Shown piece after piece: positions 11,119 through 61,617 of a stretch of 61,617 bases of DNA (its first letter is position 1; each line of letters begins with the position of its first letter). The DNA lies in the IMG/VR virus record IMGVR_UViG_3300037755_000275, positions 1 to 61,617 of that record. One strand, given 5' to 3'. Position numbers and translations under genes: made by a program. The DNA is from a virus. Taxonomy: Duplodnaviria; Caudoviricetes. The notes under the pieces are model-generated. The model was not told the DNA's origin. It saw only the letters and a program-made list of their open reading frames with translations, and did not search any database.

Positions 11119-11140
11119 TGTTATTGTCCTTTCTACAGTC

Positions 11141-17027: not shown

Positions 17028-17059
17028 GAGTTTGGCCGGGGGTCCCTCTCCCCTGTGTA

Positions 17060-17746
17060 CTACTTTCCAGTAACCCTCTTGGCTCTGTCGTAGCCCAGCA
17101 CCTTGGCCGTTAGCTCCACGAGCCACTTTTCCATCTCATGGTGGGAGACAAACAGCAGCACTGCCTCATGGCTGTTGATATCCGTAAACCCTACTTGGCG
17201 CTTGTCAGCATGTACCGTGATCGGCTGCCTGAGTACCAATGTTACTGCCACATCGCCCTCCACAAATCGTCCGGGATCTGCCTACGGTATTTTCTCACCA
17301 TGTCCCTGGCACGTTCGGCCGTCTCGTCAGTCAGCCGTGAAGCCATAGCCCATGAGTGCCCATTGAAAGAATCCAATTTGTTGAACCCCTGGCCGTCCAG
17401 AGAGGTGGCCCCGTCGCACAGACCGGCCAAGTGCTTGACCACGGCATGGACGGCGGCGGCGTTGATAAACCGCACGGAGCTGATTCTACGTTCCATGGTC
17501 GGGCCTCGGCCTGTTTTCAACATCTATGATCTGTAGCACCAACCGGCGACGTGGGTAGATACCCTTGGACTTTGTCCAAACCGTGATCTGATCCCCCAAC
17601 TCAAATTTGTGGCCAAGCGCCCTATGGAACGCACTGAGGTTGCCTGACCTTTCCATATCTACCGTGGCGTGGACCACCGCGCCGACTCTCCTGGCATCCA
17701 GACCCCAGTTGGTGTGCTCAGCCACGGCAAGCCCTTCCATTGACAC
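17060..17746 (-). CDS. Three small hypothetical proteins (17060-17263, 17242-17523, 17486-17746)
   Basis: Overlapping coupled ORFs. The middle one has CDGATSLDGQGFNKLD...KYRRQI. Confidence 0.5.
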
Positions 17747-17911
17747 TGTGGACGGTAAACCCAGGATGTGGAAGGGGGCCTACGCAGTATACGTGCACTG
17801 GAAAAGAGAATACCAAAATGGCTTTATCCGTCAACGGGGTACTTAACTCCTTTATCATCTATAGCTTTACTGTTGACGGAACTTTTTCTCTTTCCGTCAA
17901 CAACAGGCGTC

Positions 17912-19357
17912 TTAGTCCTCAAAAACAGTGCTGTTGACCCGCATTTCCTCCGCTACAAAGTCAATGTGGGATACGCGGCGGGGCTTGAACCGGAGCCCGT
18001 GGTGGCCACGTTTGCAGCCACCGGACCGAAGTGTGGAAGGGAAACCCTCTTTTTCAAGCCGCATACCCCACCACCGCTTGGTCTGTGTCTCCTGCAAAAA
18101 GTCTTCGCAGGACTGCTCGTAGGACTCCCACAGGTCGGCATTGGACACCCAGCCGGACTGGTCACGGTCGAAGGTTTCCGCCAGCCAGAACCCCATGTGG
18201 TCGGACTCGGCACGGAAGGCCATCGTTTCCTTTTCCACGCTATTGGGCGGGTCAAACCGCTCACCGTTGGCATAGAAGGCCCTGGAGCCTTCGATTAGCC
18301 AAGCCAGGACGGCTCTGGACGCGCCCATGGGGTCACAGAGATGCGCCTTGAGGGTGTGGTCCTCGCGTTCGGCCACGTGGGGCATCGGGATGCAGATGAT
18401 ACGACGCCACCAGCCGGAATCCGGGGCTGAGTCCAGGGAAGGGAACCTGTTGCACGTGCTGACACAACTCCAGGTCTGGCGCAGTTCTTTGCCGGTACGG
18501 AACAGGGAGCGGGCGCGGAAGTCATCGCCGCCGGAGAGGGCCTTGATGATATTGGCGTCCAGGGTGGAGGAACCTGGCAGCTCTGTAGTGAGCACCAGAC
18601 GTTTCCCATCCCAGGATGCTAAGTCCTCCCGTGGGGTGCCGGCCTTATGCCTTAGAAAGCTGTCATGATTGGTGGTCATGGCATAGGGGGAGATGGCACG
18701 GATAATGGCTTTGGTTAAGGTACCTTTGCCGCTGCCACCACGGCCGCGTATCAGGACAAATTTCTCTTTGCTGTTGGAGCCAGTAAGGGAGTAGCCGAAG
18801 TAAGTCTGGAGGAAGACCTGTAGTTTGTAGTCACCGCCGGTTGCCTCAAGCAGGAACTTTTCCCAGCGGGCGTCCCTGGCATCCGGCTCATACTTGGTAT
18901 CCGTGTGCCAGGTAATGCGGTCGGATCGCTGAGCCTCGGTGAGTTGGCCTGTATGCAGGTTTACCACGCCATTGGAGACGCCGAGTAAGTAGGGGTCGGT
19001 GTTGAACGTGGAATTGGGTACGGATACGAAATCCTCAGTTTTGACCAGGTCCAACATATCGTAGATCGTGCGGCGTCTGCCCAGTGTAATCTCCAGGTCA
19101 ACGCCCACGCTGCGGTCAAATTCATCACAACAAGTGGCCAGAAAGTCTTTGGCAAGGCGGGTAGCTGCCCCATGCCCAGGGCCATCCATGTCAGTGCGGT
19201 CCACCAGCCAACGGGACATCTCATCATTCCAGACTACCCAGTGTTTGTGGGAAGGAACCCAATGGATAGAGCCTCGGTATTGCCTGGCAAACAGGTGGGC
19301 GCGGCCGGCGTCTGATTGGACAAGTAATGCCGCTTCCTTGGTACGCATTCCAGACAT
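17912..19357 (-). CDS. D5/P4-type SF3 helicase (D5_N + ATPase; no primase domain visible)
   Basis: NGVVNLHTG; Walker A GRGGSGKGT; IKALSGGD..ARSLF; WWRRI. Confidence 0.9.
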   Translation of the reverse strand: MSGMRTKEAALLVQSDAGRAHLFARQYRGSIHWVPSHKHWVVWNDEMSRWLVDRTDMDGPGHGAATRLAKDFLATCCDEFDRSVGVDLEITLGRRRTIYDMLDLVKTEDFVSVPNSTFNTDPYLLGVSNGVVNLHTGQLTEAQRSDRITWHTDTKYEPDARDARWEKFLLEATGGDYKLQVFLQTYFGYSLTGSNSKEKFVLIRGRGGSGKGTLTKAIIRAISPYAMTTNHDSFLRHKAGTPREDLASWDGKRLVLTTELPGSSTLDANIIKALSGGDDFRARSLFRTGKELRQTWSCVSTCNRFPSLDSAPDSGWWRRIICIPMPHVAEREDHTLKAHLCDPMGASRAVLAWLIEGSRAFYANGERFDPPNSVEKETMAFRAESDHMGFWLAETFDRDQSGWVSNADLWESYEQSCEDFLQETQTKRWWGMRLEKEGFPSTLRSGGCKRGHHGLRFKPRRVSHIDFVAEEMRVNSTVFED

Positions 19358-34684: not shown

Positions 34685-35266
34685 CTACGTGTACCTCATC
34701 GGTGATCCACCACGCGGCCAATAGAACCCAGCCACGTTACAGATAATCCTGGTCCCGGCTGGCACAATCGGGCTCCCAATCGCATGGGTCACCGTATACT
34801 GCAACGTCTGGTCGCTCTCAACCAGAATGCCTCCGAACACCGTCCGTGGCTGCTGCAACGACCCCAGCGTGTTGCGGATATCGGAATAGTTCCGTACCGG
34901 CGTCCCCTGCAACGCGGCCGCACCAATGCGGATACGCCAGATCAGGTTGCCAGACCCTTCCACGAACCCTGGTCCGGTGAACAGATTCGTGACCGCCAGG
35001 ATGATTCCGTCATAGCCAAACGGAATCTGGTACGTGAGCACCAGTGTTTCCGTACCATTCGCCGCAGGAGTCACGATGGACCGGAACTCATCAAAGGGCA
35101 GCCCGCCGGGAGGCATCTCGATCCATGGGTAGGGCCAATAACCCTGTTCCCTGGTTTCCTGCGGCTCACACACGCCCTGGAGATTCCCATACCGTGCCCG
35201 TAGCGCCGCCAGCCCCTTCTGGGCCGTGTACGTCTGCCATGCATCGTTGATTGAATACGGGGTCAT
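34685..35266 (-). CDS. Putative single-jelly-roll minor capsid/penton protein
   Basis: Alternating beta strands (VLTYQIPFGYDGII, LIWRIRI, LQYTVT, ICNVAGFYWP). Fold inferred. Confidence 0.5.
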   Translation of the reverse strand: MTPYSINDAWQTYTAQKGLAALRARYGNLQGVCEPQETREQGYWPYPWIEMPPGGLPFDEFRSIVTPAANGTETLVLTYQIPFGYDGIILAVTNLFTGPGFVEGSGNLIWRIRIGAAALQGTPVRNYSDIRNTLGSLQQPRTVFGGILVESDQTLQYTVTHAIGSPIVPAGTRIICNVAGFYWPRGGSPMRYT

Positions 35267-36022: not shown

Positions 36023-36913
36023 CTAACACGGAACACGGCGTACTCCCTGGAATGAAAACTGGTAAGACTGGTTGCCACCGGCCGCGTTCAACAGGCTGGT
36101 CAATTCAAACTCAATATTGGACCCGAATGGGTACACGTAGGTCGGGACCGGGAACACGGATTGGAAATTCAACGTGTTCTCAAAGTAGTTGACCCAGCGG
36201 GCTGGGTGTGGCTGTGAGGCCAGGGCGCGGTAGCCAGTCGGGTCGAACAGGAGAAACAGGAACGGGTCAAGGCCCAATGACTGGGGTAGACCACCATTGC
36301 CGTTGCCGCCATCTTCCTCAACCACTGGGATGGCATGGACGCAGATTTTCTGCAACTCAAAGTCGTATTCAGTGATTGGGATACTGAATCGGCGCGGGGC
36401 AGCTCCAGCGTCAAAGAAAAAGTTGATGGTCACGTCCAGTTCATACGAGTATGGGTGTTCGTAGTACACGTAATCGGATTGGTAGATACCCCAGTCCCAT
36501 TGGCCTTTGGGAACACGCTTGATACCCTGCCAGCCGATGAATGAGATTTCGTTGCCGTCTTCGTTGACGGCCTTGACCACATTCTGGAGATCGAACCGGA
36601 TCATGGACTGGACAGGGAAGAACTTTTCCGGGACCACTGTCCAGCGGTTGTTGGCGTTGACCAGTAAGGGAGTGCCGCCAGCGCCATGCTCTACACCCAA
36701 CCCCATGGCTTGGGACTCAGATGGGTTATAGTAGAGCCAGCGTGAGGCCACCGTGGCCATGCCGACCACGGAGCGGAGATAGAAGTCTGCATCAGTGATG
36801 TTGATGATGTTGCCGGATGGGCTGGTACCATTGGTCAAGGACCGTCCGTCGAATACCCAGAAGTAGGGAATATCGACCATGCCCTCTGGCGTCTTGTAGT
36901 GTTGTTCACGCAT
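36023..36913 (-). CDS. Tandem two-domain capsid-like protein (duplicated jelly-roll unit)
   Basis: Both halves match the 142-aa neighbour: ITDADFYLR / ITEYDFELQ, and WQGIKRVP / FQGVRRVP. Confidence 0.6.
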   Translation of the reverse strand: MREQHYKTPEGMVDIPYFWVFDGRSLTNGTSPSGNIINITDADFYLRSVVGMATVASRWLYYNPSESQAMGLGVEHGAGGTPLLVNANNRWTVVPEKFFPVQSMIRFDLQNVVKAVNEDGNEISFIGWQGIKRVPKGQWDWGIYQSDYVYYEHPYSYELDVTINFFFDAGAAPRRFSIPITEYDFELQKICVHAIPVVEEDGGNGNGGLPQSLGLDPFLFLLFDPTGYRALASQPHPARWVNYFENTLNFQSVFPVPTYVYPFGSNIEFELTSLLNAAGGNQSYQFSFQGVRRVPC

Positions 36914-37283: not shown

Positions 37284-37712
37284 CTACGCAATAGCAAATC
37301 GCTTGACCCCCCGGAACAAAATCTGGATCGTGTTCTCAGCAACGGACAAGTCAGCGATGTCAATGCCAATCTTGCCACCGGCTGGAATAATAACTTCCGG
37401 GAACTCCGGGTAGGGACTGGACGGATTGCCCTGGATGTTCGTATTGATGATCCGGCCGCTGGATAGCCAGTAGTCATCGGAGTCGCTGAATCGTACCGAG
37501 AACGCCCCGGTAAACAGGTTGATGACCGTTGCACGCCAGGGGAAGTCAGCATCGTTTTCGACGGACAACTGTGTCTGGAGGACCTGTGACGCGGTCAACG
37601 TCACGTTGAACACGTAATCAAATGACTGGTCCTTGTAACCGCCCGGTACGTCCAGTTGGCCAATGCCGTTGTAGGCCGGCGGCGCATAGGGATTGATTCC
37701 TGCACGGAACAT
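37284..37712 (-). CDS. Putative small single-jelly-roll capsid protein
   Basis: FDYVFNVTL, ENDADF, FSVRFSD, PEVIIPAGGKIGIDIADLS, IQILFRGVKRF. Strong RBS AAGGAGA. Confidence 0.6.
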   Translation of the reverse strand: MFRAGINPYAPPAYNGIGQLDVPGGYKDQSFDYVFNVTLTASQVLQTQLSVENDADFPWRATVINLFTGAFSVRFSDSDDYWLSSGRIINTNIQGNPSSPYPEFPEVIIPAGGKIGIDIADLSVAENTIQILFRGVKRFAIA

Positions 37713-38682: not shown

Positions 38683-39492
38683 CTAGAAAGCCCTCCCAAA
38701 GGCTCTGGACACACCGTTCATGGTGACCGGCGCACCGGCTCCATAGGTGCCATTGGCGGCCACGGGAATCGGACGCCCGTAAGCCGGATAGTTCGCCTGG
38801 TTCGGGTTCAACGGGTTCTGAGGCACCGGGTAGGCACCGGGAACCAGATCACCGAGACCACGCATACCCTGAAGGGCAAGCTGCGAACCAATGGCCGGGA
38901 TGAAGGCATTGAGCAGAACCGAACCGGCCTGCATCAAGCCGCCAAACCGGACAGCAGCCCCAAACTGACGATTCCACAGACCACCCAGCCAACCGGCCGC
39001 GAATGCCGCCCCAATGGATGACAAAGAGGCCATGATTGGCGTGGACTTGAGATTGGCCGGCAGTGCGTTGGAAATGAACTTGGTGGCGGTCACACCGACC
39101 AGACCACCGAAGATTTCCTGCACCTGCCCAGCCATTGCCCCACCGAGCTGGTTACGGCGGCGGCGGTTGCTCCTGCGGACCACGATACGGGTAGCGTTGC
39201 GTCGTCGGCGGCGCGGGGCAGCCGAGATACGCCGTCGCGTGCGTCGTCGGGGTCGCGCCGTGTAGGAGGCATTCCGGCGGCGCGTCCGACGTGCGGTAGT
39301 GCGCTTTCTGCGTTTCTTCACTTTCGCTCTCCTTGGATTGAGTGCCCCGAGCGTAATGACCCGGAGCGGGTTTTTCGACCGGCTACGGTGGCGGGCACGT
39401 GTGGCCCGTTTCCGTCTCGTGGCCGAAGACTTTGACTTTCGACGGCGGCTCACCGGGTTGGCAATCCGCCTGACTCGAATGATGCGTTGCAT
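38683..39492 (-). CDS. Arg-rich DNA-condensing core protein with C-terminal membrane domain
   Basis: About 115-aa protamine-like N-terminus with NP/RRRN motifs; hydrophobic helices; MRGLGD. Confidence 0.7.
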   Translation of the reverse strand: MQRIIRVRRIANPVSRRRKSKSSATRRKRATRARHRSRSKNPLRVITLGALNPRRAKVKKRRKRTTARRTRRRNASYTARPRRRTRRRISAAPRRRRRNATRIVVRRSNRRRRNQLGGAMAGQVQEIFGGLVGVTATKFISNALPANLKSTPIMASLSSIGAAFAAGWLGGLWNRQFGAAVRFGGLMQAGSVLLNAFIPAIGSQLALQGMRGLGDLVPGAYPVPQNPLNPNQANYPAYGRPIPVAANGTYGAGAPVTMNGVSRAFGRAF

Positions 39493-40082: not shown

Positions 40083-42302
40083 TCAGTTCACAATCCCCTC
40101 AGGACGTACTTCGTACTGGCCGCCGGACACGGATAACAGGTGGTTGATCGTGTCATAGTTCAATACGGGCTTTTGTCCTGTCACTTCCCCCAGCTTGTGG
40201 AAGTAGTCAATCAGCTCAAACTTGTCAAAACCCTTCTCTGTCCTGTAGGTCACCACCTGGAGTACGCCCAGGGCCATGTGATCGCGTACCCAGTCCCGGC
40301 CTGACATGCCCAGTTGACTTAGGTCCACGTACTGTGAGCCGCCCTCAAAGTACAGTTGGCGTCCATCAGGGGATGAACACAGCATGATGACGTTGCGGCC
40401 GGATTTGGGGAACTGGAGCCGCACCTTTTCATCCGTCATCAGGTGTACGTCCAGTTCAGCCAGTTCGCCAAGTTCGGCCAGGTTGTCACGCGATGAGATC
40501 ACGGTACGGACTTCGGTGGTTTGCTTAGGACCACGGCCATGGAACTGTTGATAGAGCTGGTCGGCGTCCTGCATGGTGGCAGGGTTAGGATTACGTCGCC
40601 TTCCCCTACCACGCCTTGGACTTTCATCCACAAACCAGTTGCTAAGCAGTCCGTCCAGGTCCTTGTATGCTGCCGTGCTGCTGATCTCTGGGTGTGCCTT
40701 GGAGAACTCTTTTGACGCCCACAGCATTTGCTCATACCGCCCACTTTTCCCAGTCCCACTCAGTGGCACACGAGCCAAATGGTAGAGATTCACCAATTCA
40801 CCAGCGTCCTTAGGGTCGATGAATCGGGGTACATAACGGTCAGGGTTGTTTCCACCCCGTGTCACTTCTCCAGGGTTCCCATTCCCATTCCGTTTGAATT
40901 TCCTTAACGCCTTCCTCGTCGCCGTAATCCCAATACCCCTAGCCCGGCCATTGACCTTCCTCGGCACGCCACTCAGCCTCAAATCCCCCTCATAGGCCAT
41001 CAGCCACCTATCAGCCTTCTGGTAAGTGTCAAACACCTTGATAGGCTTCAGGCTTTCCCCATATACCCCACTCTCATCAAACGGCATCACAGCCCACTTG
41101 CCAGGACTGCGGAACTTGATGACCTTCTCGGCTCTGGCGTTCCAGTTGTTCCACTTGATGGTGCCGGCGCTGGGGTCCACGTCACCAACACCAATATCCT
41201 TGCCGTGCGTGCGGCTGATGGTGAAGCGGAGATATTGAGGGTCCTTCTCCACCTTAGACTTGATTGCCTTCAACAATTCCGCCGTGGTGTCACCGTGGAT
41301 GTAGCCGTAGCCGCCTGAGGTATAGCGATCAGGCCACTGGGCAATCAGTTTCTTCCCGGTGATGGAGTTACGGCGTCGGCGCTTGATCCTACTCCTGTCC
41401 TTATGGGTCCACGCATCATAGAATCCGCGCATAAACTCAGTGCGTTTCTTTCCATATGATCGTGTAGGCTCCCCGGCCCGTCCCCACATAAACTCAAACT
41501 GCTGACCCATCGTAATGTCAGGGTCTATAGCGATCCCGGTATCAGCACCACGGCGCTCCTGTTCCCCATGGGAGTAGCCAGCGTCATACCAGTTGACTGC
41601 TGTGGGGTTACGGCGTCCGGGCTCAGGCCACAGCCGGTTGAACTCACGGGCGGCCAAGTCGTAATCATCCTCATTCCACTTGGTACGGCCTGCTTCCCTC
41701 ATCTGACGATTGGCAGCATCCGTAGCCGCCGCACGGGCCAATTGCTGAGTCATGGCAGGCCGTGGATTCAACTCTTTACCAGTCGCCCTCCAGAAATGTG
41801 CCGCCTCCCTCAAATATTCTGCCTCCCTCACCTGTTGGCTGTCCGTGACCCCGCTCTCCTGGTCATAGGACCGGCGCTTCAGCATTTCCGCTGCCCACTC
41901 AATACCCTTTTGCCGATTGCCAAACATCTTGGTCCCTTCAGCAATAAGGTGTGAATGCTTCTGCACTATGTGCTTGGTACGTCCCCGGTAATGTGGCTCA
42001 TCCATCAGGTCAGTAATAGATGGGTTCCGCCGTGTGCCTTCCACATGCTCCTGATGTCCTGGAGACTCCCAAACCGTTTGTCTTCTGTTGGGATCAAATA
42101 CCTCAACCGGATGCCCAGTCCGCTTGTACTCCTTCTTTCCAGCAGCAACCGCCTTAGCCTTGCTGTCAAATGTCATCCGCACTGGTAACTGGTTAGGGTC
42201 ATCCAAGTCATAGCGCGTGACCTGATAGGAATAACCACGATGCTTGCGGGTCGTGGGTTCCCCGTAAGCATTCCGCCTCCGTCTCTGTACCCTACGCGCC
42301 AT
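40083..42302 (-). CDS. RRNP-punctuated modular basic protein (739 aa)
   Basis: Modules separated by RRRRNA, RRNP, LNP, RRNP, RRRRNS, NNP, RRRNPNP. C-terminal domain YQQFHG...YFHKLGE..P...GGQY..GIVN. Confidence 0.75.
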   Translation of the reverse strand: MARRVQRRRRNAYGEPTTRKHRGYSYQVTRYDLDDPNQLPVRMTFDSKAKAVAAGKKEYKRTGHPVEVFDPNRRQTVWESPGHQEHVEGTRRNPSITDLMDEPHYRGRTKHIVQKHSHLIAEGTKMFGNRQKGIEWAAEMLKRRSYDQESGVTDSQQVREAEYLREAAHFWRATGKELNPRPAMTQQLARAAATDAANRQMREAGRTKWNEDDYDLAAREFNRLWPEPGRRNPTAVNWYDAGYSHGEQERRGADTGIAIDPDITMGQQFEFMWGRAGEPTRSYGKKRTEFMRGFYDAWTHKDRSRIKRRRRNSITGKKLIAQWPDRYTSGGYGYIHGDTTAELLKAIKSKVEKDPQYLRFTISRTHGKDIGVGDVDPSAGTIKWNNWNARAEKVIKFRSPGKWAVMPFDESGVYGESLKPIKVFDTYQKADRWLMAYEGDLRLSGVPRKVNGRARGIGITATRKALRKFKRNGNGNPGEVTRGGNNPDRYVPRFIDPKDAGELVNLYHLARVPLSGTGKSGRYEQMLWASKEFSKAHPEISSTAAYKDLDGLLSNWFVDESPRRGRGRRRNPNPATMQDADQLYQQFHGRGPKQTTEVRTVISSRDNLAELGELAELDVHLMTDEKVRLQFPKSGRNVIMLCSSPDGRQLYFEGGSQYVDLSQLGMSGRDWVRDHMALGVLQVVTYRTEKGFDKFELIDYFHKLGEVTGQKPVLNYDTINHLLSVSGGQYEVRPEGIVN

Positions 42303-42342: not shown

Positions 42343-45008
42343 CTACCGTTTCCACAGCCCCAGGACTATGGCCCCCAACGCCCCACCAATGACCAAGGTC
42401 TGTAGGTCAAGGCCCTGGACAAATTCACCCACGCCGGCACCCAGGACAGGGGCACCGTTCACGTAGCCCGTAGCCGTGTCACTGGCCGCAGCACCGTTGG
42501 TCCCTTGGCCGCTCGTATCCCCGCTGCCACCATCCCCGCCACAGCAACAGCCGGACATGCCAGCCCGCAGAGCCCGGATCAACGGGTTACTGGGCACTGC
42601 CAACCTGGACGGCATCAGGTCCCCGAACTTGGGCACGTAGCCGATGTCCCCGGCGAAACCATATGGCATCAGCGCACGGGACTTGTTATCCACGATGGGA
42701 TTCTGTGGCACGACAAAGAAGCCTGGGATGAGATCCCCGAATCCTGGTGCCGGATGGTGGTTGATCCACATAGTTTGTTTCTCCCTTACCTTCGTCCCTT
42801 ACCTTTTGGCCAAGACCACTACGCCGAAAATCGCCGCCCCGATCAGAAACATGGTCGTATAGTTGATTACTGGTTTCGTACCTGGCTCTGGCGGCTTGCC
42901 AGTGACCAGAGCCCATGTGCTATAGGCAGAACACATTTCCGGGTTGGCTCTGCAATAAGCCGCTACTGACTTGTCACCAGCCTCAATCGCCCGCTGACGC
43001 ATCTCAGGAGTCATCGCTGGCCCAAAATCAGCCGCCTGACACTTGGATGGGTCAATTGGCAAACACTCGGCTACCATGGCACCTGCTTGGCCAAGGTAGT
43101 CACACCAGGCCGGTGATGGAGCACAGGGGTTCGTCTCCCTCTCACTGGGCCACAGCGGGATGTACTGATACCACGGTGTCTGACCCATGCCACGGTTGGC
43201 TGTCCACCTGTGCATGGCGTCATGGTCCAATCGCTCGAATTTTGAAATCAATGGCATTCGTTACTTTTTCGTCAAAGTGCTCAAGGCCAGTAGGCCGACC
43301 AAAGATCCCGCAATCAGCAACCAGTTGTCATTCACCCAGGCCAGGGCCGTGTCCGGCGGTCGTGGCGCTAATGGTGGCTGCCCACCTGTCACCGTAGGCG
43401 GCGGTGAAAACAGAGACGGCAGCATTCCCCACCACTGGTCCTCAGCGCGGGTGACAGGTGTACCGGCTTGGATCAACGGAACGTTGGCCATCCAGTCCAC
43501 GTTGCCCATCGCAGTACGTGGATCAAATACACGCCCCATGCCGTCCATGTCCATCACCGGGATCTGGTCGCAGTCTTTGGCACCCGGTGGCACTTGCAGA
43601 CTGGGCACGATTCCTGGCCTGTTGATCGGGATGCGTGACTCCACAATACGGACCACTTCCTCCGGCTCAAAGTAGTGAGCCAACAGCGTGTAGTTCGGAT
43701 TGTTTTTCACATGCGGAGGTATTTGCATCGTCTGTTACCACTTGACCTGTAGTGCCTCTATTTGCTCTACTTCCTGTTTGCATTCTTCATCTGTCATCCC
43801 AGGGTCAGCTTGAACGGCCCAGCCATCGTACAGACCATCTTTGGTGAAGTAATGGACGATGGGCTGTTTACCGGGGGCGCGGCACACGATGCTATCAAGT
43901 TCCTCCCCGTCTTCCACGTAGGAACCGTCCGGTATGTACAGCACACGGTTCAGGTCCTTGTTTCCACCGTCACCAATAACCTTGAGGTTCATCACTTGCC
44001 CTTTCGCAACAGCACCCAGGCCAGCACGCCGCCGATGGCAAATGGTGCCAGCCCTTCTGTCATGGATATCCCAGGACAGTCCTCCAGGTACACATCCGGG
44101 GATGGTGCCCAGTCCCCAAAAGTCCGCGTACCGATGTCGGCGGCCAACGGCCCGTAGTCGGCCGGTCCCGGAGGAGGCACCAGTTGTGCCGGGCATCTTC
44201 GCCAGTCAAATATCACCATTTAGTTGCCCCCTTCGTAGAGACTTGCCTGTTGGCCCCACCAGTTGACTCCGGCCATGCCGTTGCCATTGACCCGGCCAAG
44301 TCCCATGGGACCCTTGACCATGGCCCACCACTGGTCAATCGTCAGTGGTGTGTTCTGCACGTCGTCTACGCCCAGTGGCTTTCTTCCCAATTTCGTGGCC
44401 TGCCACAGTGACTCCGGCACAGCAAACGGGTCCACGGCGGGCAGATTCGCTGGCAGATAAAAGTTCCATTGCCAAAAGTGCAGCTCCCCACCATTGGCAG
44501 TGGCCTCACCCTTCGCTGCCTGCCACACCTGGTCCTTGACGTTGCCGCCGCCGGACTGTCCGCCGCCCACGGTATTGCTGCCAACCTGTTGCCCAGCATC
44601 ATTTTGTTGGCCCGGCGTCTGGCCAGTGGTATTGGTAATCGGGACCTGTCCACCATTCGATATGGGGGCAACGTCGCTGGCCAGTCCCACGTAATCTGGG
44701 ATCATGCCCTCGCCTACTGCCCACCTGTAACCGAAGTAGATGGCCGCACCGATGGCCGCGTACTTGACCACCCCGCCCATGTCGCCCATGCCGCTTGTTT
44801 TGGCCATTCACTTCCCTTTCTTTTTGCTGCCTGTTGCCACAAACAGGGCTGCCCCTGCCAACAAAGCCAACAATGCACCTGCACCAATAGCCCCACCACT
44901 ACAGGAACCACAGGCCGTGGCAACCGATTGCACAGCAGCCATGCTGGGAACTCCCAGCATTCCGTAGCGCAATCCCTGACGTACTATGTTTGGCAACTGG
45001 GCTGTCAT
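42343..45008 (-). CDS. Cluster of seven small proteins, mostly membrane-anchored (42343-42771, 42799-43257, 43261-43728, 43735-43992, 43992-44219, 44220-44807, 44808-45008)
   Basis: Tightly coupled ORFs. Five end in a TM helix plus K/R tail, one has an N-terminal TM, and 43735-43992 is soluble and acidic. Confidence 0.7.
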
Positions 45009-46138
45009 TTCTTACTCATCACCATGTAGCCGCCGACTGCTGCACCGGCCCATACCCACCAGGGAAGGTCACCCAAGGCACCAAACAGTCCACCATCCCC
45101 ATCCCCAGCCGGAGCGCCAACACCCGTGCCAAAGTATCCATAGTCCGTAACTGCCGTCACTGTCTGGCCATCTCCTGACACCACACCCTCACCGACAAAG
45201 AATCCCGGCGGCACCTTCAGCGCTTCCTGCACCATCTCCAGACTGGAATTGGCGTTGTAGGCAATGGCCGCCCGCCAGCTTACCCGTCCATCGGACCGCT
45301 CAATATCCAACCCCTTGACCAAGGACTGCATCAACTGTTGGCGTAACTGTGCCCCCTGCTGAGCTACCGCCGCAGCATCTTGTTGAACAGTCACAGATCC
45401 ACCAGCCGCAGCATTGACAGCCGCCGTGATTGCAGCCTGGGATTCAGGAGTCCCAATAGCCGAGGTGGGTACTCCCTGCTGGATTGCCGCCGCCGTGGCC
45501 TGTGTCCTGGCCGCCGAGGTAATTGCCGTCCCCGGATTCAGGTTGATGGCATAGGCCCCATGCTCATAGGGTCCGCCGTCAATCGAACACATCATGGTCG
45601 GGTAGTTCAAACCACCCGGCACATTAGACGGATACACCAACTTGCAATTGACCGTGTGCCTGGTCTGCTGAAAATACTGCTTGGCATAGTCACTGAGCGG
45701 CTGTGCCATCTGCTGCTCAACCGACATGGAGGCATAGTCGGAGGCGGATGCGCTGGACTGTTGCACCACTGACTGTGGCGACTGGCAATAGCCGTTGTGC
45801 CAGACACGGCCTGGGCTGCACCGGCAACCGTCAGGACCCTCCGGCCCGGTATAGGCAGCAGTACGCCCGCTTCCCTCAGGGCAGTTGGCCCCAAGACTAC
45901 CAATGCCGTTGTACCGAGTCGGCAGAGCACCGGGCCAGTCCAGGTAGCTCAGCCAGTTCCACATGGGCACGCGGTCCATCTGGGCACGAACCTGGGCAAA
46001 CTCATCCGGCAGCACACAGGCTTTCCGCACCCGGTCCCACACGTAGGGATACGGACACAGCGCACGGGACTGTTGCCCCACCGCGCCGTTGTTGAACGCG
46101 CCCGCCTGTTGCGCCTCGTTGACCTTTACGTGTGCCAT
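45005..46138 (-). CDS. C-terminally anchored membrane protein with Cys-rich modules
   Basis: CPYPYVW..AC, CPEG...CRCSPG..YC; WWVWAGAAVGGYMVMSKK. Confidence 0.7.
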   Translation of the reverse strand: MAHVKVNEAQQAGAFNNGAVGQQSRALCPYPYVWDRVRKACVLPDEFAQVRAQMDRVPMWNWLSYLDWPGALPTRYNGIGSLGANCPEGSGRTAAYTGPEGPDGCRCSPGRVWHNGYCQSPQSVVQQSSASASDYASMSVEQQMAQPLSDYAKQYFQQTRHTVNCKLVYPSNVPGGLNYPTMMCSIDGGPYEHGAYAINLNPGTAITSAARTQATAAAIQQGVPTSAIGTPESQAAITAAVNAAAGGSVTVQQDAAAVAQQGAQLRQQLMQSLVKGLDIERSDGRVSWRAAIAYNANSSLEMVQEALKVPPGFFVGEGVVSGDGQTVTAVTDYGYFGTGVGAPAGDGDGGLFGALGDLPWWVWAGAAVGGYMVMSKK

Positions 46139-46178
46139 GATCTGTGGTCTCAGTTCGTTTTAATCACTAAACTCCAGG

Positions 46179-47381
46179 TCACATCTGCAATGCCACGAAA
46201 GCCAGCACTCCGGCAATCAGCAGTGGGGTGAGATTGCCCATGTCACCAGTGCCCTGGGTCCGGTACACCGTTTGACCTGTCACAGGGTCCACTTCGGCTA
46301 CCAGGCCGGGATCAGGGACCACATCCGGGTCATTGGCGATTGGGTCCCTGTAGCGTGCAAACCAGTCCCACTGGCCACCGGGTTTGCGGTCGTCAATGCA
46401 CCATTTACCGGGCGTGCCCATGTCAGGGATGCCGCAGGACTTGACCACGTAGTCCCAGCCGGCGTCAAAGTTTTGTAACGCCTGGTATTGGGATGAGACC
46501 GTGTGGGGGCCGGACATGTAACCAGCCAGGTTTTGCTGCATCATGGGCTCTACGCTGTCCACAATTTCAGTGGTGGCGCGTTTCTGGCCCGGCTTCTTGC
46601 GGCTGAATAGGGCCATGAGTCCAATGGTCACGCCTGCTACGGCCAGACCAATGGGACCACCGGCGGCGGCAAGCCATACGGAGCTGGATGCCAGGGAGCT
46701 ACCTGATGCAATGGCGGCGGATGTTACTGCCAGACCTGTGCCCACAGCAGCCTGGGTTGTGGAACCACCAGACGGTAGACGGAATCCGCCCTGGGTTGTC
46801 TGTCCCTGTGTGAAGTACTCGGAAAGATCCTGACCAAGCCCACCTAGTCCGTTCTGTGTCTGGTGGAACGGCTTGGGGTCAACGTAGATGAACTTGTCAT
46901 AGCCGACCACGCCACGGTGTTCCATGGGACGGGATAGGGCCTTGGCCGCTTTGTCAATCCGTGCCTGACGTTCCAGCTCCTCAAGCTGCGGGTCCGTGTT
47001 CATGGCCCGGAGCGCCCATTCCGTACCCATGCCGATGATGACGCCTTGGGTGATGGGATCAAGGAAGCCTAGGGAACCAAGGGAGCCATCACTGCGGCGG
47101 TAGACGCCACGGGCTGCGGCCGGCGCTGGTTGGCCCACGTGACTGAGTAGCCAAGCCGTGTCCTGCACACGGGAATTGATACCAGAGAATGCGCCAGGGT
47201 GACCATGGCGGCGGCGCTCACGGACACGGCGGGATGGCGTGGCGTCAGCACTGGCGGGCTGGGCTACGTGGGACAGCAGCCAGGCTGTGTCCTGCACACG
47301 GGAGTTGATGCCACGCACACCACGGCCGGGGGGACGTGAGACGTGTCCACCAAGAGCCGATCTGTAGGAGGTTTGTTGCAT
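46179..47381 (-). CDS. Membrane protein with an internal repeat and Gly/Ala-rich hydrophobic segment (entry protein candidate)
   Basis: GINSRVQDTAWLLSHVxQPA twice; AAAGGPIGLAVAGVTIGL; C-terminal TM. Confidence 0.65.
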   Translation of the reverse strand: MQQTSYRSALGGHVSRPPGRGVRGINSRVQDTAWLLSHVAQPASADATPSRRVRERRRHGHPGAFSGINSRVQDTAWLLSHVGQPAPAAARGVYRRSDGSLGSLGFLDPITQGVIIGMGTEWALRAMNTDPQLEELERQARIDKAAKALSRPMEHRGVVGYDKFIYVDPKPFHQTQNGLGGLGQDLSEYFTQGQTTQGGFRLPSGGSTTQAAVGTGLAVTSAAIASGSSLASSSVWLAAAGGPIGLAVAGVTIGLMALFSRKKPGQKRATTEIVDSVEPMMQQNLAGYMSGPHTVSSQYQALQNFDAGWDYVVKSCGIPDMGTPGKWCIDDRKPGGQWDWFARYRDPIANDPDVVPDPGLVAEVDPVTGQTVYRTQGTGDMGNLTPLLIAGVLAFVALQM

Positions 47382-49684
47382 TACCTGTAAGCCGCCCGCC
47401 AACCATTTTTGATGCTCTTTTCCAACCGCGCCTTATGGGCACTGGCGCTGGAGTATCCACGTTTCTTGAGTCGTGATACAGCCTTCCTTGCAGAGGCTAC
47501 GGTGTTGCCAACCCACGCGATGTTGTTGAACCCCGTGGTTGCATAAACTACGTAGCCTTCCCGGTAATCCAGTACTCCGGGATTAGACCGTCGCCTCCCC
47601 TTCCGTGCCATCCCCGCCATTCTCTTAGCCCCATACTTGCGTCTGCCGATTGATGTACACAGACCACCAGGACTACGCACCCCACGGCGCTTCATGGTGG
47701 ATACACATTTGCGGAACCTGGAACCGGTGCCCAGCTTGCCTTTACCAAATGACGGGTTGGCTTTATACCCACGTTCAATTTGCTTGTATCCCACAAAGCG
47801 ATTACCATCCCACCGATGGATAGAGGCTTCCCCTTGTTTTTGTGCTACTGCTTCCGCCTTACTCAAGGCAGCACGTAGCGTGGCATGGTAGGAATGCTCT
47901 CCGCGCCCACGCCCGTTGAACACCATGTACTTTTTTATTGGATTGGATGACCGTGACGGGTTACTCACCCTGCGAAACTGTTTCCGCCACCCACGCTTGA
48001 ACCCGGCCGGTAGCTTGGCCTCAAACCCCTTGACTGCCTTGTGACCAGCAGCCAACAGCTTTTTCATGGCCTTCTGGGCTTCAGTGGCAAGACGACCAAC
48101 CCAGGCCACGGAGTTGCCGACCTGGACCACGTAGCCTTTGCGTGGGTTGTTGACACGGGTATGGGGGTTGGTCCGCCGACGCAGCACGGACGCGGCATTG
48201 CGGCGTCGTGAATTTGGCCTGGCAACCTTGGACCCATATTTGTATGCACTGCCACCAATCTCAGCCAACCCATCTGCTGCACCTACCCGCCAGTTGGCCA
48301 AGTAACTCCGTTGCAGCTCAGTACGCATACTTGGAATCAGATTCCTGTAGGAACCAAACTCCCTTTTAATGGCCGTCTCAATTTGTGACTGGGATGGTGC
48401 CTGTCTCTTGCCACCACGTTTGCCTACCTTGAACCCAGCACGATAGGCTACGGTGCTGAGGGCTTCATAGGAGGGATTGCGTAACCTCCCACCCTTGGCC
48501 ACACTCCTGGTCCCAATCCCTGCATCCCGTCCCCGGCCACGTGGATTCTTGGCACCAGTTGGGTTTATCCACGACTTGGCTTGTCTGAGCGTGTCTGTCT
48601 GCCACACCAACTTTGACTGGTAATACACGTCATAGGAGGTTCGGACACGGCCATCGCCACTACGTCCCCTCTTTTTGACAATCACAAATCCCATGTAGGG
48701 GATACGAGTTGGATTCATCACCCGTGCCCCTACCGACCGTCCAATACGGCCGGCCACGGCCCTGGCGCTGGGTCCGGCTACAGTGCGGCGTGGACGTACA
48801 CCCGGATTGCGTTTCCTGGGACTTGACCCAGTACCGATTACTACCCGCACCCTGTCATCACCGGAACGCCCTTCTTGCCTGTTGATGATGTTGGCCGTTT
48901 CTTCTGCTTCCTTCCTGGACGTGTACCGATACATTGAGCCATGCTTCCGATAACCAATCGGCTCAGGTCCGGGAGTACGCATCTTGCCTTCAGCGACCCA
49001 GTAGTAGGTTGGCCCCTTGCCGGGATTCCTACCCCGAATAATCCTGGGCCTGTCCTTCTTCGGCGGCGTCGGCGGCTTTTTGGTCCTGGGCGGAATCCAC
49101 GCCCGTCTTGCAGCAAGTACCCCGCCGGCTTTTGGCAACCCATACCCGTACCCTGGACCCGTGGCCGTGGCCGTACCGACCGTGAATATCGGGTTCTGTC
49201 TCCCACGCCCTGTAACCCGACTTGCCTTCTTGAACTGTTCCCGCCACCCGACAACCGGCACCTTGCCGCTGACCGGGTTAGGCCCAACCTTTTTAATCAT
49301 GCAAATGCCGAACCCGGCGCGTTTGAGTTTGGTCTTGGCCTTGGTCGTGTCAGGTTTGGAGGCAGAGACGTAGGCCAGGGTGCCTTTGCAGTAGACACCC
49401 CATTTGTGACCGGCGCGGGACTTGGATCGTGGGTTGGTGCGTCGTGTCATGGTGCGCCTACCTCGTGGGTTTCTTTTCTTGGGCAACTTACCACCAAGTT
49501 CGATCACGGTTTGTTCAATGGCTGACTTCCACGCCGGGTGGATCGTAGTACGCAATTGTCCAATCGTTGGTGACCCCGGATAGCTTGCTGAAATTCTGAT
49601 TGAGTCGTTGTACCCACGGCGCTCTGCCAACTTTATTAGTTGGTTCTGAATCTTCCGAAGGTATGTGCGTTCGGCGTCCGTCAC
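47381..49684 (-). CDS. NP-punctuated, highly basic polyprotein-like protein (767 aa)
   Basis: GTG start overlaps the upstream TGA at 49681-49684. 16 Asn-Pro dipeptides, mostly after K/R runs. Confidence 0.75.
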   Translation of the reverse strand: MTDAERTYLRKIQNQLIKLAERRGYNDSIRISASYPGSPTIGQLRTTIHPAWKSAIEQTVIELGGKLPKKRNPRGRRTMTRRTNPRSKSRAGHKWGVYCKGTLAYVSASKPDTTKAKTKLKRAGFGICMIKKVGPNPVSGKVPVVGWREQFKKASRVTGRGRQNPIFTVGTATATGPGYGYGLPKAGGVLAARRAWIPPRTKKPPTPPKKDRPRIIRGRNPGKGPTYYWVAEGKMRTPGPEPIGYRKHGSMYRYTSRKEAEETANIINRQEGRSGDDRVRVVIGTGSSPRKRNPGVRPRRTVAGPSARAVAGRIGRSVGARVMNPTRIPYMGFVIVKKRGRSGDGRVRTSYDVYYQSKLVWQTDTLRQAKSWINPTGAKNPRGRGRDAGIGTRSVAKGGRLRNPSYEALSTVAYRAGFKVGKRGGKRQAPSQSQIETAIKREFGSYRNLIPSMRTELQRSYLANWRVGAADGLAEIGGSAYKYGSKVARPNSRRRNAASVLRRRTNPHTRVNNPRKGYVVQVGNSVAWVGRLATEAQKAMKKLLAAGHKAVKGFEAKLPAGFKRGWRKQFRRVSNPSRSSNPIKKYMVFNGRGRGEHSYHATLRAALSKAEAVAQKQGEASIHRWDGNRFVGYKQIERGYKANPSFGKGKLGTGSRFRKCVSTMKRRGVRSPGGLCTSIGRRKYGAKRMAGMARKGRRRSNPGVLDYREGYVVYATTGFNNIAWVGNTVASARKAVSRLKKRGYSSASAHKARLEKSIKNGWRAAYR

Positions 49685-50331
49685 CGTTTCCCCCGATAGG
49701 TCCCACCACCGACGCCACCACTGAACGCAATCGCCAGCAGGATCATCCCCGCTGCCAGTACCGCAAACTGTCCACCTGCGCTGGAAGGCAACATGCTTTT
49801 CAACTGTTCCGGCAGATACTCCTCCAGTCCGGCCATGGACACGGGAGCACCACCGGGAGCACTGGGCCTCGATACTTGCGCCAGGTACATGGACTACTTC
49901 CTCCGGGACATGGCCATGAATACCAGCACGCCAACCCCGACCAGGGCCACGGTCCCAACTGAGAACCCGGTGGCAAAACCTTCCGGCGTGGCTACCCCAT
50001 ACTGCTGCGACGACAATGAACCCGGAATGATGGGCAACGACGGCTGCGTACCTTCCGGCTGCTGGTAGTAGATGGTCCCCTGCGGCGTTGTCTGCACCAC
50101 GGTCCCAGGTCCATACTTGAACCGCGTGCTGACTGTCTCCACGCCAGTCTTGATGAGATCCTGCCACCAGGTCTGGCCCATGCCACGGGATGCCAGGTAG
50201 CCACGTAGGCCGCCGGATGGTTCATGTCCGCCGGGGACACTCATCGTGCCCTCTAGCGACTGTGCCGAGAATGCACGCCGGATGCGCTGAGCCTGATTGC
50301 CTACCGTGTAGCGGCCAACGACAGCGGCCAT
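49681..50331 (-). CDS. Two C-terminally anchored membrane proteins (49681-49890 and 49894-50331)
   Basis: FAVLAAGMILLAIAF; RGMGQ...VALVGVGVLVFMAMSRRK. Confidence 0.7.
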
Positions 50332-50333
50332 GG

Positions 50334-51029
50334 TCAGATCCCCCCTCTTGCCCACAGGTACATCAGCAGCACGACGCCGACTACGGTCCCAACTCCCATG
50401 CCACCAATTGGCCACTCCTGTATCCGGGTATAGGGCGCGTGTTCCCACCCTGGATGTGGGCCATGACTCGTGTCCACCGCGATCCGTTCCCCCTCATTGG
50501 TGTAGGCGGCAACGTAGACGTGGGAGAACTTACCCACCTCAACCCTGTCCGCCGCGATGGTCACGAACGCGGTACGGATACCCAGCGCCGTCAACAGTGC
50601 TGCCGTATACATGGAGAAGTCGTCGCAGTCGCCCAACCGGCTGCATTGGCGGCCATCACCGCACATGGCGGCCATTTGTTTTGGCCGAACCAGCACTTCA
50701 ATGATGGGGACACTGCCGGGAGTTTCCATCCACGAGGACAGCCGCTCGTCGCCCACGAATGACAGCCGGCGCTTCACGTAGCGGAATACGCGGTCCACGA
50801 TCTCACGCTGTGGGATGTGGCCGTAGTCGATAGTACCTACAGCCTCGTGGGCATCCCTGCGGATCTCAAGTGACTGGGCATCCTCCACCACGTACTGCCG
50901 CATTAAATCTATGGTGGCGGCAACCTGGCCGTCCGCGTCATCCGGGACGTAGCTCTCCTGCGTAGGTAGGACTCGACCGAAGGCTGGATGGTAGAGGGCC
51001 TGCATCCTGCGGGCTAGGCCCCCTCCCAT
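50334..51029 (-). CDS. Transglutaminase-like cysteine protease with C-terminal TM
   Basis: Catalytic Cys-His-Asp motifs GDCDDFS, FSHVY, AVDTS. First gene of the virion operon. Confidence 0.85.
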   Translation of the reverse strand: MGGGLARRMQALYHPAFGRVLPTQESYVPDDADGQVAATIDLMRQYVVEDAQSLEIRRDAHEAVGTIDYGHIPQREIVDRVFRYVKRRLSFVGDERLSSWMETPGSVPIIEVLVRPKQMAAMCGDGRQCSRLGDCDDFSMYTAALLTALGIRTAFVTIAADRVEVGKFSHVYVAAYTNEGERIAVDTSHGPHPGWEHAPYTRIQEWPIGGMGVGTVVGVVLLMYLWARGGI

Positions 51030-51248
51030 GGGTCAAGGCCAGATCCCTCCAGGGGAAACGCGCCTGGTACGCGGCCCCCCGCCGGCCTCAACCCACTACC
51101 TGGAACACACTGATGGACCATTCGACCCTGACACTGACAGAGGCCAAAGGTTGCAGTCAATATCTACTAGTGTTATATATATGTCCATACGTGCCTGTTG
51201 AACAACGTAGCCTGTACGGTCTGTTGCATACCATATGAAAGGACCACA

Positions 51249-53237
51249 ATGGCTGCAAAAAAGACCCCCACAGCTCGTGGCAAAGTCAAAAAAACCAAGC
51301 TGACAGGGCCACCTCGGAAGCCTGCAAAGTACCTGCGGACGGTTCGGGCGGGCGGAAACGCCCCAGACGATGATTCTGAGGGCCTGGAGCTGGAACTAGG
51401 CCCAGAGTTGGTGTCCGACGACCCGGTTGACGATCCTGGGGCCGGACCAAGCGATGATTTTGAGGATCTGCCGCAGGAACCGCGCCGCCGGATGCCCCCT
51501 GCCCCACCCCGTGGCAGACGACTACCGACCATCTTCCCCAACCCAGGCGGATTCAAACTCTCCTGGGACAAATTCCACCGCTACTGGGAGCAGTGCCACC
51601 AGAACCCAGAGCTACGGCCCCGCCTCAAGGTCTACGGTTACCGCACCTTCCCCGTGATGCTGGAAGACAACCGCCGGGTATTCATCGGTGTCCACGATCC
51701 GTCCGAAGACCCGGCCGCCGGGGAGATCCCCAACAAGCCGCTGACCATAGACGACGTGGCCCGCATGTTTGGGTCCGGCGACTACCATTTCAAGATCAAC
51801 GACCGTGGGGCCAACAACCAACCTATCTGCAACTGCAATCTGCTGGGACGCGGCCCGCTTGCCGATTTCAACACCTATCCGCCTATTCTGGACATCGGGG
51901 TAATCGACCCGGCCCACCCGTCCAACGCGACTTACATCAAACAGATGAAGGCCAAGAAAAACTGGGGTTCTGAGGAGGAGGAAAAAAAGACCATGGAACA
52001 GGTAGACAAGCTGCTGGACCGGCTGGACAGGGCCAACGAGCGCCTGTACAAGTCACGGGAGCATGACCGCTCCTCCAGTGATGAGGGACGGGCGGCCGAG
52101 GTGGTAGCCCATGGGGCCAAACGTGCGCTGGACCTGGTAGCCGACGCCGCCAGCCGCACCTCCGGGGGCGGTGATAGTGGTATCCAGACCTTTGTAGGCG
52201 TGGCTACGGCGTTGGCCGAACTGCTCAAGTCCACCAAGGGTGAACCTGGACAACTAGAAACAATCATGGCCGTGTATCAAAAGGCGTCGGACGCCGAACG
52301 CCAAGTGCTCACGGCACAATTGGATATGATGCGTGAGGAGCTGCGGGCGTCACGGGAGGAGCGGAAACAGGACCAGGTGAACCGTAACCCGGCCGTCACT
52401 GGTGAGCCTGATGACCCATTCAAGAACCTGCGTCAGTTGGCGGAACTCCGGGAAATCTTCCAGGACACTTTCCAACCGGGATCACAGCGTTCGTCCAAGT
52501 TCAACTGGTTTGAGGCACTAGCCCCGATGGCTATGCAGGTCATCAGTCCGCTGGCCCAGGCAGCTACTTACTATTTCCAAGCCCAAGCAGCACGGTCCAG
52601 CGGGCAGGCTCCCCCGCCACCGCCGGACATATCCCAACAGCCTGGGATGAACCCGGCCCAACTCCCACAGCCTCAAGGTCAGACTCCCAACCCCCAGGGC
52701 CAGCAGGACTTCCAGCAGTTCATGGCGGAACTGACCCCACGTATCCTGCGCTTCATCAATGACCCAGAACGCAGCGGAGCCGACTTCGCTGACTTCTTCC
52801 TGGACTGGCAGGGTGATGCCACCTATGACCAATTGACCCAGATTGCACCAACGCCGCAGGAATCGGTGGAAGCCGTCCTGATGCAGTTGCGGACCTATGA
52901 GCCCCTGTGGCGGAACTTGGCATCACGGGAGCAGTACGTACGTCAATTCCTGTATGAGTTCCTGACTGCGTTTGACGAAGCCACGGACCAGGAGCCGGCC
53001 CCTGGACCACAAGCCATGCCCAATGGCCACGACCCCATGGCCGGTACAGTGGCCCCCGAATCACAAGTAACTATGGGGTCCAGTGGATCTGTACCAGGCA
53101 CTACGGGACCACCTCCCGGCTGGCAACCCAACCATGAAAGCACCTTTGGGCCGGACGCCACCCCAGCCCCCAGGGCCAGGACCAAGGGGGGCCGTAAAAA
53201 AACTTCCGCCACCCCTTCCAAATCCCGTGGCACATAG
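51249..53237 (+). CDS. Large hypothetical protein (662 aa; coiled coil, Pro/Gln-rich)
   Basis: Start MAAKKTP follows GAAAGGA; divergent from the virion operon. Confidence 0.8.
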   Translation: MAAKKTPTARGKVKKTKLTGPPRKPAKYLRTVRAGGNAPDDDSEGLELELGPELVSDDPVDDPGAGPSDDFEDLPQEPRRRMPPAPPRGRRLPTIFPNPGGFKLSWDKFHRYWEQCHQNPELRPRLKVYGYRTFPVMLEDNRRVFIGVHDPSEDPAAGEIPNKPLTIDDVARMFGSGDYHFKINDRGANNQPICNCNLLGRGPLADFNTYPPILDIGVIDPAHPSNATYIKQMKAKKNWGSEEEEKKTMEQVDKLLDRLDRANERLYKSREHDRSSSDEGRAAEVVAHGAKRALDLVADAASRTSGGGDSGIQTFVGVATALAELLKSTKGEPGQLETIMAVYQKASDAERQVLTAQLDMMREELRASREERKQDQVNRNPAVTGEPDDPFKNLRQLAELREIFQDTFQPGSQRSSKFNWFEALAPMAMQVISPLAQAATYYFQAQAARSSGQAPPPPPDISQQPGMNPAQLPQPQGQTPNPQGQQDFQQFMAELTPRILRFINDPERSGADFADFFLDWQGDATYDQLTQIAPTPQESVEAVLMQLRTYEPLWRNLASREQYVRQFLYEFLTAFDEATDQEPAPGPQAMPNGHDPMAGTVAPESQVTMGSSGSVPGTTGPPPGWQPNHESTFGPDATPAPRARTKGGRKKTSATPSKSRGT

Positions 53238-61490: not shown

Positions 61491-61617
61491 CTGGACACGC
61501 CGTCGATGGAGATGGCCGTACCCATACCGATGAACTGTTGGGCCACGGTGTCCGTGTTGACAAACTGGCAGTAGAATCCACGGAACGCCCCTACCTCCAC
61601 CTGTTGGTCCGCCGCCG
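61491..61617. repeat. 127-bp direct repeat identical to 1-127
   Basis: Exact copy of the window start. Confidence 0.97.

Follow-up and report, generated by a model that had tools for sequence, protein, structure and literature searches.

What is the role of an Asn-Pro (NP) dipeptide that recurs 16 times along a single, extremely basic viral protein? The question is raised by P0001, the product of a minus-strand open reading frame (ORF; 47381–49684) in the IMG/VR record IMGVR_UViG_3300037755_000275 (Caudoviricetes). The whole of this viral record, 61,617 bp with an exact 127-bp direct terminal repeat (positions 1–127 and 61491–61617), was analysed and is referred to below as the window. P0001 is a cassette of small autonomous modules, an architecture that is real, unusual and widespread, and its NP punctuation is family-wide and specific to the junctions between modules. 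As to function, we give about even odds (a probability near 0.5) to P0001 being a precursor whose cleavage at the Asn-Pro bonds releases small basic cargo that travels with the DNA.

P0001 comprises 767 amino acids (aa), among them 103 Arg and 69 Lys; its isoelectric point is 11.6 and its net charge about +135. A preliminary description, made from the DNA letters and their translations, had counted 16 NP dipeptides in this protein, most of them after basic runs and separating segments of up to about 100 aa. All of this is borne out: composition alone predicts 1.9 NP, none of 20,000 shuffles of the protein reached 16 (the shuffle maximum was 9), the six basic pentapeptides that had been quoted (KKRNP, RRTNP, RGRNP, RKRNP, RLRNP and RRSNP) are all present, and the NP-separated segments measure 6 to 103 aa. 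The dipeptides lie at residues 72, 84, 136, 164, 220, 293, 324, 374, 380, 403, 506, 513, 575, 581, 643 and 701, and Pro follows 16 of the 32 Asn residues. The codons used at these sites are mixed (AAC or AAT for Asn; CCA, CCG or CCC for Pro), which places the signal at the protein level and rules out a DNA-level repeat as its source, while homologs along the whole length rule out a wrong reading frame. The GTG start codon shares a GTGA overlap with the stop codon of an upstream 69-aa membrane ORF; the frame is open further upstream to 50167, an extension that overlaps two other ORFs, and the syntenic gene of a relative locus, L002 (see below), starts at the point equivalent to the P0001 start. 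GC content at third codon positions (GC3) is 0.58, below that of neighbouring genes, and ranges from 0.49 to 0.70 between modules, a spread in small samples that hints at mixed module origins. The public gene call for this region (P0003; 47381–48325, minus strand) is only 315 aa long, starting at Met453; residues 1–452, for which homologs exist, are left out.

A search of 1.84 billion representative proteins (E ≤ 0.001) recovered 238 relatives of P0001, the matches falling module by module. Local hidden Markov models run on 151 family proteins detected the most widespread module, E (residues 644–701), in 129 proteins, comprising 63 shorter than 130 aa, 16 of 130–199 aa and 50 of at least 200 aa; module N (residues 1–72) was found in 20 proteins (14, 0 and 6 in the same size classes), and module A in 13, all of at least 200 aa. 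Modules E and N occur both alone and embedded, and the relative position of E in long proteins varies from 0.01 to 0.89, in keeping with the stand-alone homologs and module shuffling that the preliminary description had expected. Its comparison of the KLGTGSRF...GRRR module with small stand-alone proteins also holds, given 63 homologs of less than 130 aa, as does its recognition of a module that recurs three times: copies A2 (507–575) and A3 (702–767) are clearly related (z = 18.4; none of 300 shuffles as good), and A1 is a distant copy (z = 4.0 against A2; 1 of 300 shuffles as good) with the same strand-strand-helix-strand-helix order as A2 in the AlphaFold2 model. An A module forms the C-terminal end in 7 of 12 aligned A-type proteins.

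No match above cut-off to Pfam, PHROGs or NCBIfam was obtained for P0001, six long and four short relatives, nor among 30 neighbouring or related proteins. Module D has a weak match to DUF2188 (PF09954; 13 bits, E 0.12, residues 597–627) that lies below the Pfam gathering cut-off of 22. For module E, a protein atlas offered no more than leads, namely viral 'hypothetical' clusters below threshold, and the module was found in none of five related viral records. A linker peptide, R-[KR]-R-N-A-[ASP]-S-x-L-x-R-R-x-N-P (P0001 residues 494–507), recurs in eight A1-type proteins, namely P0001 and seven relatives.

The NP rule extends across the family. In 53 relatives of at least 300 aa, P0001 excluded, NP is the most enriched of all dipeptides, with 348 occurrences against 55.6 expected (6.3-fold); the second most enriched reaches only 1.86-fold, and NG, ND and NN are depleted to 0.41, 0.30 and 0.29 of expectation, respectively. 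At least three times the expected number of NP was observed in 40 of 46 long relatives. More specifically, a basic residue (Arg or Lys) is present at positions −3 to −1 in 247 of the 348 NP sites compared with a background of 41%, Arg and Lys are frequent at −4 to −1 around 329 NP sites (31% and 18%, respectively, at −2), and bulky hydrophobic residues make up 0.09–0.19 of positions −5 to −1 compared with 0.26 overall. When family members are compared by BLAST, the boundaries of similarity blocks, starts as well as ends, cluster within −3 to +8 of NP (321 sites). Among 40 embedded E modules, an NP follows 9–31 aa downstream in 38 and precedes 4–22 aa upstream in 31, and at least five of the nine that lack an upstream NP begin at the protein N-terminus. 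Stand-alone modules are generally without NP, and only 3 of 63 stand-alone E proteins have one after the module. Because NP flanks embedded E modules yet is mostly missing in stand-alone ones, it is a feature of junctions rather than of modules.

An AlphaFold2 model of P0001, built from a 150-row alignment (mean predicted local distance difference test, pLDDT, 61.7), displays confident islands between long stretches with pLDDT below 50. At least nine modules can be delimited, seven of them with a block-mean pLDDT above 70 (coordinates and values are collected in the table). Twelve of the 16 NP fall in stretches with pLDDT below 50 and three (513, 643 and 701) at module edges. The proposal that NP would lie in linkers is thus upheld for 15 of the 16 sites and fails for N136-P137, which lies inside folded module A1; NP inside a folded domain is limited to this one site, since only residue 136 lies within a module.

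Table. Positions of P0001, its modules and associated genes in the window (pLDDT, block means of the AlphaFold2 model)
Feature	Position	Strand	Description	pLDDT	Basis
P0001	47381..49684	-	hyper-basic cassette protein with 16 Asn-Pro junctions		composition, ORF
Module N	49469..49684	-	aa 1–72; two predicted helices	67–93	stand-alone and embedded homologs, AlphaFold2
Module A1	49214..49414	-	aa 91–157; strand-strand-helix-strand-helix; internal N136-P137 in loop before GWR helix	88–96	alignment, AlphaFold2
Module B	48806..49024	-	aa 221–293; confident core 251–285; also in two other family proteins	86–92	segment clusters, AlphaFold2
Module F	48167..48475	-	aa 404–506; helical; terminal conserved peptide R-R-R-N-A-A-S-x-L-R-R-R-x-N-P	70–74	alignment, AlphaFold2
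Module A2	47960..48145	-	aa 514–575; A1 topology	81–96	repeat comparison, AlphaFold2
Module D	47756..47941	-	aa 582–643; weak DUF2188-like match		Pfam sub-threshold, AlphaFold2
Module E	47582..47755	-	aa 644–701; three helices	94–98	homologs, AlphaFold2
Module A3	47384..47581	-	aa 702–767; C-terminal A copy	74–81	repeat comparison, alignment
Second NP-punctuated protein	40083..42302	-	739 aa, 7 NP; variable modules, then conserved C-terminal domain (CTD)		NP count, homologs
CTD	40086..40610	-	about 165 aa; N-terminal helix and beta domain; RRRNPNP before, GIVN at end		alignment, model
Third NP-punctuated protein	38683..39492	-	269 aa, 5 NP; hyper-basic N-terminal half, hydrophobic Gly/Ala-rich C-terminal half		NP count, orthologs
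Transglutaminase-like protein	50334..51029	-	papain-fold; C-terminal membrane anchor; Cys135-His170-Asp186		sub-threshold Pfam, alignment, synteny
Two small membrane ORFs	49681..50448	-	C-terminal membrane anchors (49894–50448 and 49681–49890); directly upstream of P0001; same order in L002		
Membrane-anchored protein	46179..47402	-	downstream of P0001		synteny

Exchange of cassettes is seen among the relatives. When the family proteins are divided at NP, 520 segments of at least 30 aa form 226 clusters (199 with a single member), and proteins that share clusters carry them in different orders. A metagenome scan recovered a single relative locus, L002 (3.2 kb), with the gene order of the window: a homolog of 51198–53237, the transglutaminase-like membrane protein, two small membrane ORFs and a basic protein. 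Homology of the latter is confined to P0001 residues 66–225 (59% identity), and the shared block is bounded by N72-P73 and N220-P221 with unrelated modules on both sides; modules have thus been swapped at NP junctions in this syntenic relative. One of the P0001 NP junctions reads N-A in L002. Together with the stand-alone homologs and varied module positions, this exchange at NP supports the earlier view of the protein as a cassette of modules.

Besides P0001, only two proteins of the window show such an excess of NP, one of 739 aa (7 versus 1.5 expected) and one of 269 aa (5 versus 1.1). Scanning IMG/VR with an alignment of the 739-aa protein's CTD identified 17 viral loci on uncultured contigs of 22–58 kb, each with a CTD-ending ORF of 235–770 aa carrying 1–8 NP. 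Across these loci only the CTD, the last ~165 aa, is conserved, and the modules upstream of it differ from genome to genome. The CTD also forms the end of 17 of the 151 family proteins, and a basic NP precedes it in every case. Its C-terminal residue is Asn in 19 of 22 aligned sequences and in 14 of the 17 viral CTD genes, and three of seven terminal A modules end in V-N, compared with 13 of 431 other ORFs of the viral loci that end in Asn. Natural C-termini ending in Asn are thus over-represented, and by sequence they would often mimic the product of a cut at NP. The CTD is modelled with confidence as a helix and a beta domain (pLDDT 85.1, predicted template modelling score 0.70). Its best VIA-align match is the PilZ domain 4rt0_A (Z 5.1, root mean square deviation 3.4 over 97 residues), at the level of a common arrangement only, and the best Foldseek E values are 0.054 against PDB and 0.036 against BFVD, all above 0.03. 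PDB sequence profiles of the CTD and module E gave nothing below E 0.05, and the protein atlas gave no usable CTD match. No feature of the CTD points to a protease; it may hold variable cargo in place inside the particle. Orthologs of the 269-aa protein retain the NP positions (7–8 of 8) and differ in the basic runs between them; the window's own protein has N-A and N-Q at two of the conserved NP positions. The orthologs also keep an NP about 12 residues from the start, resembling a short leader.

Gene order is conserved across the 17 viral loci. The block comprises a transglutaminase-like membrane protein (in 11 of the 17 loci, and in L002); a short, very basic, NP-bearing 'slot' gene of 109–308 aa; a homolog of 46179–47402, which adjoins the variable basic slot in 12 of 17 loci; the CTD protein; a basic NP-rich protein of 250–300 aa; homologs of 37284–37712, 36023–36913 and 34685–35266; and large acidic proteins, one with a Gp53-like tail-fibre end (L015) and one with LVIVD repeats (L003). 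It thus leads to fibre-like and repeat-rich large proteins and, given the conserved gene order, P0001 is an expanded occupant of the variable basic slot, within an apparent late block. The slot proteins of L004 (1495–2115), L006 (1269–1625) and L010 (513–1439) have an N-terminal motif in common with the region before A1 in P0007 and P0010, and share a C-terminal hairpin-like module of ~25 aa directly after NP. The L003 protein with seven LVIVD repeats (15800–18535; 911 aa), the N-terminal part of which is like window 34685–35266, is probably a receptor-binding protein. Single terminal membrane anchors occur along 44220–51029 on the minus strand (50334–51029, 49894–50448, 49681–49890, 46179–47402, 45005–46138, 44808–45008 and 44220–44807), and this run points to proteins that act on membranes during entry or lysis, or to an internal membrane.

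Elsewhere the window encodes a family A DNA polymerase (5052–6497, minus strand), a D5-type primase, a helicase, ThyX and Gp157, and no tRNA genes were found in it. A 449-aa protein with a uracil-DNA-glycosylase-superfamily domain (6866–8215, minus strand) lies just upstream of the polymerase gene, and a 416-aa trypsin-like or NAL1-like serine protease (9973–11223, minus strand) is encoded amid the replication genes. Between 27 and 51 kb, no match to the family libraries Pfam and PHROGs was obtained, and Terminase_6N was detected in none of four records (the window record and three related complete records). Tblastn of P0001, P0035 and P0007 against INPHARED (50,697 phage records) gave no match, and IMG/VR scans with P0001 and with one P0001-family alignment returned no relative. 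The P0001-type class is absent from every family library and cultured-phage set searched.

In P0001, small self-folding modules of about 50–100 aa, several of which are also free-standing small phage proteins elsewhere, are concatenated and joined by short, hydrophilic, basic linkers with the fixed element (R/K)(R/K)xN-P. NP acts as a junction mark, present only where another module follows. We posit that the chain is a precursor and would be cut between Asn and Pro at these marks, releasing many small basic proteins and peptides that would travel with the DNA and act at or after genome delivery. Either a dedicated enzyme, for which the conserved transglutaminase-like neighbour is a candidate, or Asn cyclisation could do the cutting. 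We favour such a precursor because NP is junction-specific, Asn-Pro is a known self-cleaving bond and Asn C-termini are over-represented. The retention of NP between unrelated modules and its absence from stand-alone ones also argue for specific recognition or chemistry rather than a plain spacer. For P0001 itself, we infer presence in the virion, cleavage and the agent of cleavage alike. The transglutaminase-like protein scores 18 bits against Pfam Transglut_core (cut-off 23), and all 11 of its homologs keep Cys135, His170 and Asp186 unchanged; it could be the processing enzyme, although no observation links it to the NP sites, and could equally be a wall-degrading or lysis enzyme. A complex prediction of its transglutaminase-like domain with P0001 residues 560–600 (score 0.02) was uninformative either way. 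A more far-reaching version, to which we give somewhat less than even odds, is that an uncultured phage clade makes true polyproteins, each a chain of up to a dozen or more unrelated mini-proteins with a cut at every Asn|Pro junction. A new kind of enzyme, specific for Asn-Pro, would make these cuts, or Asn cyclisation at many sites would be set off inside the particle; small basic peptides bound to the DNA, together with effectors, would then enter the host with the genome, and the cassettes would be freely swapped between phages at NP.

The strongest alternative is that the chain is never cut, which we regard as a tenable explanation at somewhat less than even odds. P0001 would then be a string of small domains, for example a DNA-condensing protein or an ejected protein threading a narrow channel, with basic-x-Asn-Pro as a turn or DNA-contact linker element; the relevant linker structure would be the Asx-Pro turn, and NP could kink the chain, make it resistant to deamidation and proteases, or contact DNA. 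The very high positive charge suits DNA binding, and the depletion of NG, ND and NN fits selection for chemically stable Asn contexts. Further observations weigh against a precursor cut at NP, several of them also favouring an uncut chain. N136-P137, in a loop between the third strand and last helix of A1 in the AlphaFold2 model, is invariant in 12 of 12 aligned relatives. The 269-aa family has NP every 10–30 residues in hyper-basic stretches too short for domains, a density that fits a structural or DNA-binding motif as well as cutting, and some equivalent sites read N-A or N-Q instead of N-P. Proven Asn-Pro autocleavages, as far as the available accounts describe them, all lie in folded turns and not in disordered linkers, and the FlhB/YscU-type NPTH site invoked in the preliminary description occurs at none of the 16 P0001 sites, the nearest being NPHT, NPTR and NPTG. 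No processing enzyme was identified: the trypsin-like gene that had been suggested as a possible protease is rejected as a conserved partner, being absent from all five related viral records (three of them complete), and neither VIA-align nor Foldseek against PDB and BFVD recognised a protease fold in the CTD. Terminase, portal and capsid genes were not recognised in the window with Pfam or PHROGs (dark region 27451–51029), and the label 'late block' rests on synteny and one fibre-like domain. On the other hand, ordinary linkers need no fixed dipeptide, yet NP is kept between unrelated modules and lost in stand-alone ones, and the over-represented Asn C-termini also count against an uncut chain.

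Two further explanations bear on the same pattern. Modules could be separated during translation if the ribosome, having made a basic nascent stretch, left the Asn-Pro bond unformed and carried on, as a bacterial counterpart of the 2A (NPGP) skip that would yield the modules as separate chains. Pro is a poor acceptor, eukaryotic viral 2A works by skipping, and the formal pattern agrees in having a fixed dipeptide ending in Pro at every junction, common basic runs upstream and frequent Asn C-termini. However, 2A needs a longer conserved upstream motif, whereas the residues before NP are merely loosely basic and the codons vary, and 2A skipping is not known to operate on bacterial ribosomes; we consider this mechanism highly improbable. 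Still more remote, to the point of being negligible, is an artefact, in the form of a non-coding or mis-framed ORF or an NP excess arising from composition or a DNA repeat. The short public gene call and the low GC3 would suit such an origin, but in-frame module homologs extend along the whole length from residue 1, several modules are modelled at pLDDT above 90, and the shuffles and differing site codons described above contradict an origin in composition or repeats.

Partial parallels to a precursor cut at NP exist in several known systems. Adenovirus core protein precursors are Arg-rich, condense DNA and are cut to smaller basic peptides inside the particle; they belong to another virus realm and have another cleavage motif and a known protease, and the resemblance is functional only. 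Head cargo of the T4 type comes from separate genes, and the prohead protease makes a single cut in each product at the protease's own motif; in P0001 a single ORF strings together many modules with Asn-Pro as the mark, and the analysis recognised no prohead protease. What phage T4 internal proteins and P1 DarA/DdrB (for P1, the available text of PMC5512222) have in common with the favoured reading of P0001 is that small basic proteins are packed with DNA, matured by cutting and injected. Self-cleavage at Asn-Pro via attack by the Asn side chain is proven, according to the accessible portions of PMC3207474 and PMC10328401, in FlhB/YscU (MEROPS N6), reovirus mu1/VP5 (N7) and RsgI anti-sigma factors, which resemble P0001 in having Asn-Pro as the scissile bond, in P0001 a would-be one. 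As in such proteins, a cut inside a loop, such as one at N136-P137 of A1, could leave the fragments held together. As described there, however, these proteins have one site each, in a folded turn of a family-specific fold, whereas P0001 has up to 16, mostly in predicted disorder, and no sequence or fold relation to them. The N6 hallmark, NPTH in a loop of a domain with a four-strand sheet and four helices, is absent from P0001, which also has no Pfam match above cut-off.

Of the kinds described so far, polyvalent proteins (Iyer et al. 2017, PMC5512222) come closest; in the available text, they similarly combine many unrelated domains in a chain with content that varies between relatives, are often encoded next to virion genes, and are proposed to be delivered with the DNA and processed into units. 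With at least nine modules and a varying architecture, P0001 falls within the two to fifteen distinct domains per polypeptide of that class. Polyvalent proteins have larger, enzymatic domains and are thought, in the same source, to be cut by embedded peptidase domains, whereas P0001 modules span 50–100 aa; P0001 also differs in its extreme basicity and its fixed Asn-Pro junctions, a rule that the available text of PMC5512222 does not mention. The terms 'linker' and 'DUF2188' are absent from that paper, and none of the polyvalent signature domains (peptidase, MuF, ArdC-N, methylase-helicase and others) was detected in P0001 or six long relatives at Pfam cut-offs or with PHROG and NCBIfam. A literature search found, in the portions of the sources available, no account of an Asn-Pro junction rule or of phage polyproteins of this kind.

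If the Asn-Pro marks are cutting sites, bacterial viruses would be using a polyprotein strategy whose cleavage chemistry or specificity has no described precedent among them, a mechanism new to phages. Reading sequences for these marks would then be a simple way to place the borders of hundreds of unknown mini-proteins, candidates for injected effectors or for peptides that condense DNA, and a fixed junction of this type might serve as a natural portable linker or cleavage tag once its behaviour is established. Even with an uncut chain, the rule delimits a large class of basic, modular proteins annotated in no library searched, as well as a gene block conserved among viruses whose structural genes have no counterpart in current family libraries.

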